DNA of 5,727 nucleotides from a virus, in the IMG/VR virus record IMGVR_UViG_3300013947_000018, positions 1 to 5,727 of that record. One strand, given 5' to 3'. The notes under the pieces were generated by a model that saw only the letters and a program-made list of their open reading frames with translations, had not been told where the DNA came from and did no database searches. Below, piece by piece: positions 1,238 through 5,727 of the stretch. Numbering within the stretch: the first letter of the stretch is position 1; the number at the start of each line of letters is the position of its first letter. The position numbers and the translations under genes were made by a program.

Positions 1238-1627
1238 TTATACCCCCTTTCTATACTTTACTTCTCGGACGTCTACGTGGACAAAATTGCTGTAACGGAT
1301 AACCCCGCCGTAGTTTTCCATGAGTTCGTCCGCGTATTTTGCAATTAGGCCTGTGCTGACTCCCTTGATTCGGATATCTGCGGCCATGCCTTTGCAATGA
1401 TAACTATTTCCGCTTCCACCTACTGTGCTATTCCAGCTTGGCGTTCTGTAGCCGCTGTTGATGATTACAGGTTTGCTGAAGTGTTCGCGGATTTGTTCCA
1501 GGATTGCGATTAGATCGGTACTCACCAATAATTCGTCGCTTCCGTCTTTGGAGGCCATTTCTTTTGCGTTGAAGTGTTCACTTACATTTCCGAAACTTCT
1601 GTTGATGCAATAAATGAGTGTTGCCAT
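1238..1627 (-). CDS. Zinc D,D- or L,D-peptidase of the M15/LAS superfamily (Peptidase_M15_3 / VanY-like). Putative peptidoglycan hydrolase (endolysin), 129 aa from the ATG at 1627.
   Basis: The metal-binding signature S-x-H-x-x-G-x-A-x-D is present as SYHCKGMAAD (1405..1376). The distal ligand motif is present as FVHVDVR, and a preceding SGYRTPSWN motif is also there. I prefer the ATG at 1627 because GAAGAGGTGG lies 6 nt upstream and the sigma70 promoter lies about 80 nt upstream. The track's start at 1816 has no SD, lies inside the iteron array, and is upstream of that promoter. Confidence 0.85.
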   Translation of the reverse strand: MATLIYCINRSFGNVSEHFNAKEMASKDGSDELLVSTDLIAILEQIREHFSKPVIINSGYRTPSWNSTVGGSGNSYHCKGMAADIRIKGVSTGLIAKYADELMENYGGVIRYSNFVHVDVREVKYRKGV

Positions 1628-1706: not shown

Positions 1707-1735
1707 ATTTTAATGTTTACCTGCGTCGAAGTCAA
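1707..1735 (-). promoter_or_regulatory. Sigma70-type promoter driving the whole minus-strand gene block.
   Basis: The minus strand reads AAAAAAAACC TTGACT TCGACGCAGGTAAACAT TAAAAT AGAAAG. The -35 TTGACT is at 1735..1730, the spacer is 17 nt, and the -10 TAAAAT is at 1712..1707. An A-tract (UP-like) lies just upstream. It is the only such match I found in the non-coding region, though my scan was not exhaustive. Confidence 0.6.
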
Positions 1736-1803
1736 GGTTTTTTTTGCGTATGCGAAAAAAATTTTGAGTTCGGCACAGGTTGCCCGCCGCAGGCGAGTTT
1801 TCA

Positions 1804-1834
1804 ACACTTTCAACATTTCAACAAGTTTTCAACA
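1804..1834. repeat. 31-nt direct repeat, copy A (acactttcaacatttcaacaagttttcaaca).
   Basis: It matches 1868-1898 at 30/31 positions (c to t at position 26). The period is 64 nt. Confidence 0.9.
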
Positions 1835-1840
1835 TAAATA

Positions 1841-1860
1841 TGCACAAAGGCTTTTGTGCA
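1841..1860. other. Perfect hairpin/palindrome TGCACAAA-GGCT-TTTGTGCA, centred between the two 31-nt repeats.
   Basis: The 8-bp stem is 1841-1848 paired with 1853-1860, and the 4-nt loop is 1849-1852. All pairs are Watson-Crick. Confidence 0.8.
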
Positions 1861-1867
1861 ATTTGCT

Positions 1868-1898
1868 ACACTTTCAACATTTCAACAAGTTTTTAACA
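1868..1898. repeat. 31-nt direct repeat, copy B (acactttcaacatttcaacaagtttttaaca).
   Basis: 30/31 identity to 1804-1834. Confidence 0.9.
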
Positions 1899-2010
1899 AA
1901 ACTTTCAACATGAAAATTCTTTAGAATTTTACGCTTTAACGTTCATTTTTAGTGGTTTTCAACTTTTTCACATACACTACTACTACGACTACAACAAGTT
2001 AGAAAAATAT

Positions 2011-2057
2011 TGCGCGCGCGCGCACGTGCGCGCTTCGTGCGCGTGTGCGCGTGCGCT
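2011..2057. repeat. Alternating purine-pyrimidine (CG/TG)n tract, Z-DNA-prone, that can fold into a long hairpin.
   Basis: 2011-2033 (tgcgcgcgcgcgcacgtgcgcgc) is 23 nt of perfect R/Y alternation. 2036-2056 (cgtgcgcgtgtgcgcgtgcgc) is 21 nt of the same. Only tt separates them. 2018-2033 is a 16-nt perfect palindrome (gcgcgcacgtgcgcgc). 2014-2033 can pair with 2037-2056. The tract sits in an otherwise AT-rich spacer and is flanked on both sides by AAATAT. Confidence 0.9.
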
Positions 2058-2065
2058 CTAAATAT

Positions 2066-2103
2066 AGAAAAAAGCCCAGTACTTACTTGATAGGTACTGG
2101 GCT
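2066..2103 (-). terminator. Rho-independent terminator ending the VP1-VP2-VP4 transcript.
   Basis: The minus strand reads AGCCCAGTAC-CTATCAAGTAA-GTACTGGGCT followed by TTTTTC. The 10-bp perfect stem is 2073-2082 paired with 2094-2103, and the loop is 11 nt. The hairpin begins 12 nt after the VP4 stop codon (2118..2116). Confidence 0.8.
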
Positions 2104-2115
2104 AGGTGACACCGA

Positions 2116-3135
2116 TTAGAGAATTCCACGTTTTTTTGATGATTTTTTAATTACTCGTTCTTTAGTCTTTAGTTCGTTCCAGTAATCATGGTTTTCATAT
2201 TTTAATCGGCTTTCTTCGATTAGTTTTCTTTGCCTTTCGCGTTTGATTTCCCACAGTCTTTGTGGGTTTTCCTGTTCCATCATTTTTTCGTAGTATCTTG
2301 GTATCTGTGCTCTTTTTCCGTTGCTACACTGTATATAGCCTTTATTCCAGATTTCTTCTTTGTGTTTTTGGTAGTATTCATCTCCAAGCCCCGGTTTTAG
2401 GCTCATGCATGCAAATGGCTTTGGTTGTCCCAATTCGTAATATACATTTGCTTTTTCACCGTTAAACTCGTACATTTTTTTGGTTACATATCCCGCTACA
2501 TACCTGTATGTTTCCGGTACTGCCTGTGCAATTTGAATATTGCCCATGCCCCATAGATTAGACATCCATTTACTTGTGAAATATCCGTTGTGTCTGGTTT
2601 TGTAGAGATGTTTTAGGTCTGTTGGTTTCCAACCATATAAGATCATGTGATAGTGTGGTCTTGCTGTTTGTTCTCCGTACTCTCCTGCACAGAAATAACG
2701 TAATTTTCCCTTGCTGGCTTTCCTGAGGCGTTTTAGGAATTTTTGAATGTCTGTATACAGTAGAATTTGAACCGCGTCAGGCGCTTTGCTAGAGCCATTC
2801 CAGACGTATTGCGCTTTTCGCACTATTTCGCCTGTTTTAAGTATCATTCCCGGCACGTGTTCATCATCGTATGTTAGAGTGATAAACCATACTTCATCCG
2901 GTGTGTAGTTCCGTGCTTCTAGTTCTATTCTTGTTGTCCAATCTTCCCGCTGTCTGATTCTGCATCCGATGCATTGCCCACACGGAATTAGCATTACTCT
3001 TTGATTGTACATTACATCTTCATATTTTAGCTGTTTTCCGGATAATTCAGAAAAGCGGGCAAGTGTATACACCCGCCCGCTGATTTCTTTGTTTTCCGGG
3101 TTGTACAGCCTGATTAAAGGCTTGTAACAACTCAT
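2116..3135 (-). CDS. VP4: Replication initiation protein VP4: HUH rolling-circle endonuclease, phiX174 gpA family, 339 aa.
   Basis: Microvirus Rep motifs are present. These are PCGQCIGCR (Cys cluster), FITLTYDD (motif 1), PHYHMILYG (HUH motif, with H161 and H163 at 2655..2647) and YRYVAGYVTKK (paired catalytic tyrosines Y-x-x-x-Y, 2508..2476; compare phiX174 YVAKYVNK). The start overlaps the VP2 stop as ATGA (3135..3132). Confidence 0.95.
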   Translation of the reverse strand: MSCYKPLIRLYNPENKEISGRVYTLARFSELSGKQLKYEDVMYNQRVMLIPCGQCIGCRIRQREDWTTRIELEARNYTPDEVWFITLTYDDEHVPGMILKTGEIVRKAQYVWNGSSKAPDAVQILLYTDIQKFLKRLRKASKGKLRYFCAGEYGEQTARPHYHMILYGWKPTDLKHLYKTRHNGYFTSKWMSNLWGMGNIQIAQAVPETYRYVAGYVTKKMYEFNGEKANVYYELGQPKPFACMSLKPGLGDEYYQKHKEEIWNKGYIQCSNGKRAQIPRYYEKMMEQENPQRLWEIKRERQRKLIEESRLKYENHDYWNELKTKERVIKKSSKKRGIL

Positions 3136-4051: not shown

Positions 4052-5719
4052 TTAGATTTTGTCGAGACCCGGCACGCTGTAAAGTGGCATTACTCGCGTT
4101 GTTTTGTTGCTGATTTGGATCCCGCCAAAGAATTGCGGTTCATCCTGTACGATTAGCGTTCTTGCAATTTCGGTTTTGCCTTCGCTCATCCATTCCTGTG
4201 ACAGTGTCGGCACGGTCGAATAGTTGTCTCCATAGTGCCAGAAGTCTAGTGTCCCTTCTGCATTGCTTCGCATTTTTCCGCTGATTCGGTTCGGCTTCAT
4301 GCGGTAATCTGCCCATGCTTCTTGATAACCAAATGTTTCCTCGTCAGTCGTATTACCTGTGAGCATGATCTCTTTCTTCTTAACAGGCTGTTCGCCCAGA
4401 TTAGCAAACTGTGGCACATAGTAGTCCAGTCTGTCTCTACGGCTCCACATGCGTTCCAGTCCCTGCTGATAGCTCCGATTATGACGTACACACATTACGC
4501 CGATGATCCATCCATGTTCTTCGAAGCTCTTCGTGAAACTGCTTTCGTTGATGGGTGTTACTGACATTGCACCAGTTTCGCCAATAGGTGTATTGGTTTC
4601 TGTGTTCGCCGCACTAGTCTGTACAATCTGATTCATATTTACATGGTAGCGACCGCCTCCCAGATATTCCGGAATCTGTACAGTTTTATCGCTGATTTCG
4701 GTACCCCAGATTGCCCGAATTTGTTCACGGTACCGACTGCCACCGCGTGCTAGTGCTTCATAGTAGTGCTGTACTGCGATTGCCTGCCGTAGCTCATTGA
4801 TTGTCACCGCGTTTACACTGCTGAGGTCTGTTGCTAGATGTCCACTGATAGCGGTTCCTGCTTTGTTTAGATAATTGACTCGATTCCATCCGTCCAAACT
4901 ATTTACATACCATGTCTGAAGTGTTCCATCACCGCTTAAATTAGGTTTATTTGCGCCGATCCAATATTGGTTATTTTCAAGTGAGCCGTCTTCATTCTCA
5001 TAGATTACGTTTGCGTTTCCCGTCATTGGGATATTAACCTCCGGTCCTCGCTGAGGATACGGCAGACAGCTCGTGAAATAGTCGTGGAATTTGTTGACAG
5101 GCAGACAGCGACCGCCGGTGATTGCGTTCGTTAGAATGTCGTCCATGGATGAGTATTTGCTGTCTGTGTAGTCTACATTTGTGTCGCTTTTAATCCAGGT
5201 TGCTTCATTTTCTACGTTCTGATCTCTGAAAAATTCATTCCAGATCATAACGTATGCTCTGACTGGCAGCGCGTTTACTTCAAAAGTACTGGTGCTGTTT
5301 TTTTCGCCTAGGATGTGCGTCGGTACGCCCATGTAGTCCAATATGCTTCCCGTTCTCGGGTTATCTTCATCGTCGACGGGTTCTGCATAAACGGCATTAG
5401 GGGCGATTTTTGTAGGCTGTCGGATTGTGATTGTTGGTACTTTATATTCTCTTTCTGGCATCCACGGTGTTCCTTCTACTTCTCCCATGAACTGCTTCCA
5501 GTGTTCCCACAAGATGCGGTTAGGCGCATAGAAGTAATAGATGTCAATAAAACTGTCATCCATTACCGGGTATTTCGGTGTAGTCATTCGGATGATCGCG
5601 CTTGTGTTTACTCGGAATGTGTCATTGGGAAGTACTTCATCAACGTAGAACGGAATCAGTTCGCCGGAGTCGAATGTGGTTAAAATGGTCTGGTCTCGCT
5701 TGAATGTGCTACGGGACAT
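4052..5719 (-). CDS. VP1: Major capsid protein VP1 (Microviridae F-protein family). 555 aa in the window, about 571 aa if started at the wrap-around ATG (window position 118).
   Basis: The N-terminal block RSTFKRDQ..TTFDSGELIPFYVDEVLPNDTF...MTTPKYPVMDDSFIDIYYFYAPNRILWEHW matches the canonical microvirus capsid signature (RS-F ... G-x-L-I-P ... E-V-L-P-G-D-T ... F-F-V-P-x-R-x-x-W). The size is typical of gokushovirus VP1. The reading frame stays open to the window end (5727) and continues at 79-118. Confidence 0.95.
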   Translation of the reverse strand: MSRSTFKRDQTILTTFDSGELIPFYVDEVLPNDTFRVNTSAIIRMTTPKYPVMDDSFIDIYYFYAPNRILWEHWKQFMGEVEGTPWMPEREYKVPTITIRQPTKIAPNAVYAEPVDDEDNPRTGSILDYMGVPTHILGEKNSTSTFEVNALPVRAYVMIWNEFFRDQNVENEATWIKSDTNVDYTDSKYSSMDDILTNAITGGRCLPVNKFHDYFTSCLPYPQRGPEVNIPMTGNANVIYENEDGSLENNQYWIGANKPNLSGDGTLQTWYVNSLDGWNRVNYLNKAGTAISGHLATDLSSVNAVTINELRQAIAVQHYYEALARGGSRYREQIRAIWGTEISDKTVQIPEYLGGGRYHVNMNQIVQTSAANTETNTPIGETGAMSVTPINESSFTKSFEEHGWIIGVMCVRHNRSYQQGLERMWSRRDRLDYYVPQFANLGEQPVKKKEIMLTGNTTDEETFGYQEAWADYRMKPNRISGKMRSNAEGTLDFWHYGDNYSTVPTLSQEWMSEGKTEIARTLIVQDEPQFFGGIQISNKTTRVMPLYSVPGLDKI

Positions 5720-5727
5720 GTGTTGCT
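5650..5727. repeat. Terminal redundancy, copy 2 (identical to 1-78). The unit genome length is 5,649 nt.
   Basis: Exact 78/78 identity with the window start. Confidence 0.95.

Follow-up and report, generated by a model that had tools for sequence, protein, structure and literature searches.

A Conserved Putative DnaA-Box and DnaA-Trio Module Resembling a Bacterial Origin Core in the Intergenic Region of Gut Gokushoviruses

The window analyzed here, the entire 5,727-nt stretch of the IMG/VR virus record IMGVR_UViG_3300013947_000018, is a circularly permuted assembly with an exact 78-nt terminal redundancy (positions 1–78 equal 5650–5727), which corresponds to a circular genome of 5,649 nt. All long open reading frames (ORFs) lie on the minus strand and include the major capsid protein VP1 (Phage_F in Pfam, E = 2e-130), the replication initiator VP4, VP2, an M15 peptidase, VP5, and a VP3-like scaffold protein. 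The nearest database genomes are gut gokushoviruses of pigs, humans, and monkeys (74–80% DNA identity), and the window is itself a circular gut gokushovirus. Its sole long non-coding stretch extends from the VP4 stop codon to the peptidase start (1627–2115). There, two 31-nt repeats, which the original prediction took for part of a rolling-circle origin recognized by VP4, are embedded in a ∼215-bp module (1798–2011) that assumes the layout of the bacterial DnaA-box/DnaA-trio unwinding system (BUS).

The module consists of eight distal units, a tandem proximal pair, a 4-nt gap, a run of trios, and AT-rich DNA (Table 1). All ten units are direct repeats, and none is found on the opposite strand. 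Distal cluster 1 contains the units TTTTCAACA (1798–1806), CTTTCAACA (1807–1815), ATTTCAACA (1815–1823), and again TTTTCAACA (1826–1834), and distal cluster 2 comprises CTTTCAACA (1871–1879), ATTTCAACA (1879–1887), TTTTTAACA (1890–1898), and CTTTCAACA (1902–1910). The unit TTTTCAACA shows two mismatches to the DnaA box TTATCCACA, which is within the published limit. On the minus strand, the trio array reads 3'-GAT GAT GAT GCT GAT-5' in the direction away from the boxes, and its plus strand is at the same time a TnnT repeat of the type recognized by DnaD. The AT-rich stretch that follows (1993–2011) is ∼19 nt long in the window (12–25 nt in relatives), has an A+T content of 84%, and is succeeded by a 21-bp GC hairpin.

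Table 1. Features of the intergenic module and its surroundings in the window
Feature	Position	Strand	Remarks
Distal DnaA-box-like cluster 1, four units	1798–1834	+	Includes first 31-nt repeat (1804–1834)
Hairpin palindrome TGCACAAA-GGCT-TTTGTGCA	1841–1860		In variable spacer between the clusters; lineage-specific
Distal DnaA-box-like cluster 2, four units	1871–1910	+	Includes second 31-nt repeat (1868–1898)
Small palindrome AAAATTCT-TT-AGAATTTT	1913–1930		In second spacer; poorly conserved across the alignment
Tandem proximal boxes TTTTCAAC (1956–1963) and TTTTTCACA (1964–1972)	1956–1972	+	TTTTCCACA replaces TTTTTCACA in most relatives
Spacer TACA, proximal box to first trio	1973–1976	+	4 nt in 53 of 60 relatives' modules
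DnaA-trio array	1977–1991	-	Plus strand CTA CTA CTA CGA CTA (CTACTACTACGACTAC)
CAACAAGTTA, then AT-rich stretch AACAAGTTAGAAAAATATT	1992–2011		Putative first-melting region; bacterial origins are AT-rich at the same position
GC-rich 21-bp hairpin, 3-nt loop, alternating GC/GT tract	2012–2056	+	Stable only on the plus strand via G·T pairs
Stem-loop AGCCCAGTAC-TTACTTGATAG-GTACTGGGCT	2073–2103	+	Directly after the VP4 stop; z = -5.25; loop includes CTTGATA
VP4, HUH rolling-circle replication initiator	2116–3135	-	Pfam REP_ORF2-G2P, E = 1.9e-17; motifs HYHMILY and YVAGYVTKK in the translation
Sigma-70-type promoter TTGACT-17-TAAAAT	1707–1735	-	Top promoter match in the window (10/12); adjoins the box end of the module

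We compared the module with the published search rule for BUS. This rule describes a box with at most two mismatches to TTATCCACA (or a species-specific box), an optional tandem box in the same orientation with at most four mismatches, a spacer of 0–16 bp (typically a gap of ∼4 bp, equivalent to 13 bp from the upstream box), and at least three trios of the form 3'-NAN-5', preferably GAT, on the strand whose 5' tail extends away from the boxes (PMC8287927). In the window, the proximal box TTTTTCACA (1964–1972) has two mismatches, and its counterpart TTTTCCACA in most relatives has one. The second box, TTTTCAAC(T) (1956–1964), directly abuts TTTTTCACA in the same orientation, the TACA spacer places the trios 4 nt from the proximal box and 13 nt from the upstream box, and three GAT trios are followed by further trio-like triplets (1977–1991). 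The polarity of the trios was checked against 51 dnaA-linked origins (see below) and against Bacillus subtilis, where the origin strand opposite the trios is 5'-CTACTATTACTTCTACTA-3' (PMC10201434); B. subtilis agrees in polarity and differs little in sequence. The site at 1964–1991 is the only one in the genome that follows the rule with GAT-type trios, none of 300 shuffled sequences yields any such site, and the modules of 54 of the 60 relatives conform to the rule as well.

Similar to the BUS of B. subtilis incC (PMC8287927, PMC6669920, PMC10201434), the phage module combines tandem boxes of one orientation, a gap of ∼4 nt, and at least three GAT trios with a complementary CTACTA... (TnnT) strand and extra distal boxes upstream; the AT-rich DNA beyond its trios is a possible counterpart of the easily melted DNA of BUS. 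In contrast to BUS, it resides in the genome of a single-stranded DNA (ssDNA) phage, its short AT-rich stretch is clamped by a GC hairpin, the trios are followed by CAACAAGTTA, and it adjoins an HUH-type stem-loop. Furthermore, it is located between the VP4 and peptidase genes of a 5,649-nt phage and not at dnaA/dnaN. The module is BUS-like in form, not a chromosomal oriC.

The intergenic DNA, though non-coding, matches 53 GenBank gokushovirus records. When 83 relatives were fetched through VP4 (∼80% identical protein), the region corresponding to window positions 1793–2001 stood out as a discrete block of ∼80% identity. An alignment of 60 module copies reveals the same ten units in one orientation, organized as four units, a variable spacer, four further units, a second variable spacer, and the tandem pair, followed by four variable bases, an almost invariant CTACTACTACnnCTACAACAAGTTA, and AT-rich DNA. 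Mean pairwise identity among 58 distinct relatives amounts to 94.7% in the box columns and to 92.8% in the CTA tract plus CAACAAGTTA, whereas the remaining module columns (73.5%) and the central spacer that holds the hairpin (74.0%) are less conserved. This pattern indicates that selection acts on the boxes and trios, not on the spacers. The sequence CAACAAGTTA (1992–2001), which follows the trios immediately, hardly varies across all phage modules and is absent from bacterial origins. A plus-strand ORF at 1614–1913 was rejected as coding, because relatives differ by indels of 1, 2, and 12 nt and conservation tracks the 8-mers of the units rather than a reading frame.

At least 96 microvirus contigs carry the module, among them those of a clade with only ∼46% identity in VP1 and VP4; the plasmid collection PLSDB contains nothing similar to it. 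Five of the 83 relatives (L006, L027, L040, L052, and L078) carry the entire module in reverse orientation between the same GC-rich flanks, while the stem-loop behind VP4 is oriented as usual. The repeats that flank the inverted module are only quasi-palindromic GC tracts. All five inverted copies belong to one clade with its own spacer palindrome, CGTCATAATGACG, which points to an ancestral event rather than a switch, and a phase-variable (invertible) promoter was therefore rejected. Because the module is tolerated in either orientation, it fits an element that acts on duplex DNA and not a strand-specific element.

To compare the module with genuine origins, we scanned 185,579 genomes, one per bacterial species, for exact matches to TTWTNCACA-NNNN-CTACTACTAC. 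At least 120 stretches matched, the taxon frequencies of which are not representative. Among the matches listed, 51 (37 + 14) have an ORF with a DnaA signature that ends 100–400 bp upstream on the same strand, an adjacency with a chance of well under 1%. In both loci examined with Pfam, dnaA (Bac_DnaA, Bac_DnaA_C) lies upstream and dnaN downstream. Typical dnaA-linked origins read GTTATCCACATTATCCACAggacCTACTACTACTACTAaaaatat, and the 8+9 tandem box geometry of the phage recurs in the bacterial origins L092, L115, L136, L141, and L196.

Three Clostridial origins resemble the phage module in that all of them feature repeated TTTTCAACA/CTTTCAACA units of one orientation, a proximal TTTTCCACA, a 4-nt gap, CTACTACTAC..., and AT-rich DNA. 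The origin of the rumen bacterium Ruminococcus sp. RGIG7051 (L152) carries 17 copies of TTTCAACA, the 8-mer core of the phage units, followed by TTTTCCACA-gccc-CTACTACTACTACTA, and aligns to the relatives' modules over ∼200 nt (E = 3e-13). The origin of an Eubacteriales metagenome-assembled genome from the Hadza human gut (L196) contains eight copies of TTTCAACA, ctttcaacTTTTCCACAgacaCTACTAC..., 20 nt of AT-rich DNA, and then GGCGCGCGCG; as in the window, its AT stretch is thus followed by a GC run, and the two sequences also share the 18-mer TTTCAACAAGTTTTCAAC. The origin of Lachnospira multipara (L131) contains the exact CTACTACTACGACTAC of the window. The Clostridial origins differ from the phage modules in being longer (400–500 bp) and in having some inverted boxes. 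To judge from these loci, TTTTCAACA is a DnaA-box variant that bacteria of plausible host taxa actually employ at their dnaA-linked origins.

DNA identity between the Clostridial origins and the phage modules is ∼65–67% and is driven by short repeats, so that capture and convergence are indistinguishable. The ∼200-nt similarity to the Ruminococcus origin is what one would also see if the module were a functionless, recently captured fragment of a host origin, or an assembly chimera. We give this explanation hardly any credence, since the module occupies one and the same locus in more than 100 independent contigs, which stem from several studies and from human, pig, and monkey hosts and include GenBank genomes, and since it is found in two deeply diverged clades with purifying selection on the boxes and trios. 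As a separate observation, ∼20 non-microvirus contigs filed as viral in IMG/VR (L210/L239/L299, L234, L261, L279, L290, L312, and others) carry canonical tandem TTATCCACA boxes, CTA trios, and AT-rich DNA. No ORF with a DnaA signature is present within the fetched stretch of these larger contigs, which could represent bacterial origins wrongly called as viral or further mobile elements whose origins are BUS-like.

Taking the layout, the conservation, and the match to dnaA-linked origins together, we hold with moderate confidence that the module is a functional, origin-like element engaged by DnaA. Our confidence in any particular downstream role is lower.

Next to the module, directly behind VP4, lies a second conserved element, the stem-loop at 2073–2103. 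A 45-nt piece that contains it is 93–100% identical among relatives, compared with ∼78% for the VP4 coding DNA; its loop is invariant, and its stem exhibits a compensatory change from C-G to A-T. A plain intrinsic terminator is insufficient to explain this element, as a T-run exists in the window only and the loop is invariant across relatives. The divergent clade possesses an unrelated stem of 14–15 bp (GTGGGCCTAATCCT/AGGATTAGGCCCAC) with the same CTTGATAGG, and its loop ends in CTTGAT, followed by AGG. Overall, 93 of 96 microvirus contigs share an unaltered CTTGAT(AGG), which is borne on two unrelated stems. Chlamydia phage Chp2 has a 14-bp stem with the loop TCTACTTGAT and the same 3' flank, GCTAGGTGA. 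No clear CTTGAT stem-loop was found in phiMH2K and SpV4; phiMH2K shows only a 5-bp stem with ACTTGAGT on the antisense strand. The stem-loop is a constant neighbor of the module: in 92 contigs it is located 62–264 nt (median 154; 109 in the window) downstream of the first trio on the same strand, and in 17 contigs only ∼25 nt of AT-rich DNA separate the two. The complement of CAACAAGTTA, TAACTTGTTG, has (T)AACTTG in common with the CTTGATA loop.

CTTGATA is the nick consensus of phiX174 (CAACTTG^ATATTAAT) and of the pC194-family plasmids (CTTG^ATA), whose initiators have the tyrosine motif type of VP4. Similar to these nick sites, the stem-loop presents ACTTGATA in its loop and is accompanied by an initiator of the same HUH, two-tyrosine type (YVAGYVTKK). 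The stem-loop is the best candidate for the VP4 nick site, with a cut predicted by analogy with phiX174 between G2089 and A2090 of the plus strand. In phiX174 the motif is situated inside gene A without a hairpin, whereas in the gokushoviruses it is found in a hairpin loop outside the Rep gene and antisense to the genes. The region of the two 31-nt repeats (1804–1898) does not contain it. The strand is a difficulty for this assignment: CTTGATA is antisense to all genes, and the known microviruses package the mRNA-sense strand. Either this lineage packages the antisense strand, or the assignment of the nick site is wrong. In contig L028 (IMGVR_UViG_3300045988_086966, 8,781 nt), similarity to the microvirus ends ∼10 nt past the CTTGATA stem-loop and gives way to unrelated, coding-looking DNA; the contig is either chimerically assembled or the product of a recombination event at the putative nick site.

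The original prediction had sought the VP4 nick site elsewhere, in the palindrome bracketed by the two 31-nt repeats. These repeats, acactttcaacatttcaacaagttttcaaca (1804–1834) and acactttcaacatttcaacaagtttttaaca (1868–1898), can be read directly from the sequence with 30/31 identity and a period of 64 nt, and the palindrome between them is composed exactly of TGCACAAA (1841–1848), GGCT (1849–1852), and TTTGTGCA (1853–1860). The full repeat comprises 49 nt at 84% identity (1798–1846 versus 1862–1910), with a weaker third copy near 1944–1963. Its building block, the 8-mer TTTCAACA, occurs seven times between 1799 and 1910, always on the plus strand, where 0.28 copies are expected; none of 200 dinucleotide shuffles reached seven copies. 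As ssDNA, the hairpin folds with -8.4 kcal/mol (z = -3.25; one of 200 shuffles was equal), and its two strands are about equally stable. Repeats and hairpin are real, non-random features. The repeats form part of a larger array, in which ten units of the same orientation extend as far as 1972 and a (CTA)n tract marks the end.

According to the original prediction, this rolling-circle-like layout would consist of VP4-binding iterons and of a hairpin that carries or adjoins the nick site. The notion of an origin-like region holds, and the repeats are most plausibly binding sites of an initiator, but neither the assignment of the repeats to VP4 nor that of the nick to the hairpin could be maintained. 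The superficial likeness to the origins of CRESS-DNA viruses and rolling-circle plasmids, the stability of the hairpin relative to shuffles, and an enrichment of small palindromes in the spacer across relatives (a stem of at least 5 bp in 57% of distinct spacers versus 18% of shuffles) are in line with such a model. Yet TGCACAAA-nnnn-TTTGTGCA is found in only three of 117 module-bearing contigs (the window, L246, and L248), with a close variant in L284, and is absent from otherwise syntenic relatives, an outcome that the prediction itself had named as refuting. The loop lacks a conserved motif, being GGCT (4 nt) in the window and TGGT or GGAT in a few contigs with the same stem. Among relatives, no conserved stem with compensatory changes was found at this place; other contigs have different small palindromes or none. 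Indeed, most relatives carry TTCGTCA-TTT-TGACGAA at the place homologous to window 1835–1870, and one subgroup carries TTGTTAAACTTTATCACAACAGAGT, which forms no stable stem. As for Rep-specific iterons, the units are identical in the phage clade with ∼46%-identical VP4 and dominate dnaA-dnaN origins of gut and rumen Clostridia. Moreover, the inversion of the whole module relative to VP4 in 5/83 relatives is hard to square with a strand-specific viral-strand origin, and the CTTGATA stem-loop, ∼230 bases away, is a much better candidate for the VP4 target. We therefore regard the VP4-iteron model as very improbable. The hairpin at 1841–1860 is a lineage-specific palindrome in a variable spacer and most probably not the nick site.

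The spacer palindrome of the relatives bears on another possibility, namely that the units are recognized by some other host or phage DNA-binding protein, for instance a sporulation or nucleoid-associated regulator, and that the resemblance to DnaA boxes and trios is incidental. The consensus of the Spo0A 0A-box is TGNCGAA, which each arm of TTCGTCA-TTT-TGACGAA fits. These 0A-box-like arms hint that the host forms spores and that control of the module is linked to sporulation, and further regulators may act here as well. In addition, TTTCAACA differs from the canonical box at two positions. On the other hand, the units fill the dnaA-dnaN origins of Ruminococcus and Eubacteriales in the same order relative to the canonical TTTTCCACA and the CTA trios, and the chance that the full arrangement arose incidentally is negligible. 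A protein other than DnaA as the actual ligand of the array thus seems quite unlikely to us.

Between the module and the CTTGATA stem-loop lies the GC hairpin (2012–2056), which is strongly asymmetric. It folds with -26.8 kcal/mol (z = -3.24) on the plus strand but with -20.6 kcal/mol (z = -0.57) on the gene-sense strand, and the equivalent of the plus strand is favored in 36 of 43 distinct relatives (p = 2.4e-7). Possible functions of this hairpin are a clamp that limits the bubble, a signal for initiation on single strands (complementary-strand initiation), or both. Enterobacterial gokushoviruses have an XerCD/dif-type integration site; a site of this type was considered for the GCGC-rich tract and dropped, because the tract is a long, strand-asymmetric hairpin and a non-exhaustive look revealed no evident 28-bp dif-like core.

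Relative to the genes, the CTTGAT motif occupies the antisense strand in 93 of the 96 microvirus contigs and the sense strand in Chp2. The gene-sense strand of the window is A-rich (39.5% A and 15.1% T at third codon positions), whereas Chp2 and SpV4 are T-rich at the third positions of the sense strand; phiMH2K resembles the window in composition. Judging by the strand of CTTGAT, the asymmetry of the hairpin, and the abundance of A in the coding strand, this lineage may package the complement of its mRNAs.

An ssDNA phage also requires a priming signal for its complementary strand, and intergenic hairpins are the usual suspects (PMC9865509). The module itself could be such a complementary-strand (minus) origin in the ssDNA genome. 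All ten units are direct repeats, though, and thus form no duplex boxes in ssDNA; conservation resides in the sequence of the units and not in pairing. The occurrence of the module in both orientations is likewise unexpected for a single-strand signal, and the GC hairpin at 2012–2056 is a better candidate. We accordingly attach very little probability to a priming function of the module.

If the module is indeed engaged by DnaA, its parts suggest a sequence of events. On the double-stranded replicative form, host DnaA-ATP would fill the boxes and oligomerize from the proximal pair (TTTTCAAC-TTTTTCACA) onto the trio strand, the minus strand of the window. The trios and the AT-rich DNA (1977–2011) would then melt, with the GC hairpin limiting the bubble, and host loaders would place the helicase, with DnaD on the CTACTAC strand followed by DnaB/DnaI-DnaC in Firmicutes. 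The resulting DnaA-driven theta-type replication could let the replicative form multiply or persist without the involvement of VP4. The helicase, moving 5'->3' on the plus strand, would pass the CTTGATA hairpin and might leave single-stranded DNA for nicking by VP4 and for the start of rolling-circle replication. In its full form, this scheme means that a gut gokushovirus lineage has acquired or mimics a complete host origin core, from which DnaA would fire theta replication for Rep-independent amplification or plasmid-like persistence, before VP4 takes over at CTTGATA. We put this forward tentatively, as a possibility that may well prove wrong.

Several points weigh against the module being a DnaA-engaged origin. 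To our knowledge, the microviruses studied so far (phiX174) replicate without DnaA. The AT-rich stretch after the trios is short (∼19 nt) and runs into a very stable GC hairpin, the fourth trio of the window is GCT instead of NAN, and CAACAAGTTA after the trios is without counterpart in bacterial origins. As the inverted clade shows, the module does not have to face the CTTGATA hairpin, an observation that makes the proposed hand-over to VP4 less convincing and implies that it cannot be obligatory. None of the 120 genome matches listed encodes VP1 or VP4, and the prophage route to the host therefore failed. Finally, titration or the control of transcription would be an equally conceivable task for a box cluster.

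DnaA titration and promoter regulation are both known functions of DnaA-box clusters; the datA locus of Escherichia coli, for instance, is a DnaA sink. DnaA might accordingly bind the array of the gokushovirus without firing an origin, either with the high-copy replicative form as a sink or by regulating the promoter at 1735–1707, which would tie the late genes to the growth state of the host. The ten boxes lie 60–260 bp upstream of this promoter, the strongest of the window, which serves the downstream peptidase and structural genes and is followed by a Shine-Dalgarno sequence and the ATG at 1626. Neither titration nor control needs the exact tandem pair, the 4-nt gap, the GAT trios, or the AT-rich DNA, yet these are the most conserved parts of the module, and in the inverted clade the boxes are moved away from the promoter. 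Binding without firing is in our estimate rather unlikely, and we retain DnaA engagement of an origin-like element as the preferred interpretation.

The peptidase downstream of the promoter (1238–1626, minus strand) belongs to Peptidase_M15_3 (E = 9e-23) and is likely a lysis enzyme. As called mechanically, its ORF reaches 1816 and would span the promoter and the first box cluster; a start at the ATG at 1626, which is preceded by GAAGAGGTGG, is plausible. The 5' part of the VP4 gene contains an imperfect palindrome, AGCGGGCAAGTGTATACACCCGCCCGCT (3054–3081), that overlaps a sub-threshold Rfam match to Termite-leu. This match (E = 0.71) is probably due to chance, and it is the sole one in an Rfam scan of the entire window at E <= 1, which returned nothing in the intergenic region.

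Other replication systems share single aspects of the gokushovirus region. The origins of CRESS-DNA viruses and geminiviruses also feature direct repeats near a stem-loop in an intergenic region that adjoins the gene for an HUH Rep; in these origins, iterons stand beside a stem-loop with a conserved nonanucleotide. In contrast, the repeats of the phage match host DnaA boxes, and the hairpin that they bracket is unconserved and has a 4-nt loop. The theta origins of P1 oriR, pSC101, F, and RK2 contain DnaA boxes as auxiliaries and require their own iteron-binding Rep. Similar to these elements, the phage would be a mobile element that recruits host DnaA through origin boxes. It differs from them in that it encodes no theta-type initiator and that its module looks self-sufficient for DnaA; we know of no box-trio unwinding module in those theta origins.

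In the full-text literature, we found nothing that joins Microviridae or gokushoviruses with DnaA, a DnaA box, or oriC. The literature searched contains no mapped gokushovirus origin and only generic statements on origins and stem-loops, and among the papers listed that mention both DnaA-trios and phage, none concerns a phage-borne module to judge from titles and abstracts. The type of element is thus known from bacteria, and as a conserved module of an ssDNA phage it appears to be new.

Replication by a phage-encoded HUH nickase is classically exemplified by the microviruses, and gokushoviruses are the dominant ssDNA phages of the gut. If the proposed role of the module is true, it would represent a novel route by which a minimal phage taps the replication control of its host and would offer a mechanism for the long-term persistence of uncultured gokushoviruses. 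The box dialect of a phage, matched to the oriC of its host, would then serve as a host predictor from sequence, and the dialect TTTTCAACA would point to Clostridia of the Ruminococcus/Eubacteriales type as hosts. The module would also provide a natural, portable test case of ∼215 bp for the DnaA-box/trio unwinding model. For VP4, the search for the nick site is redirected to one conserved stem-loop, and negative-sense microviruses become a testable possibility.

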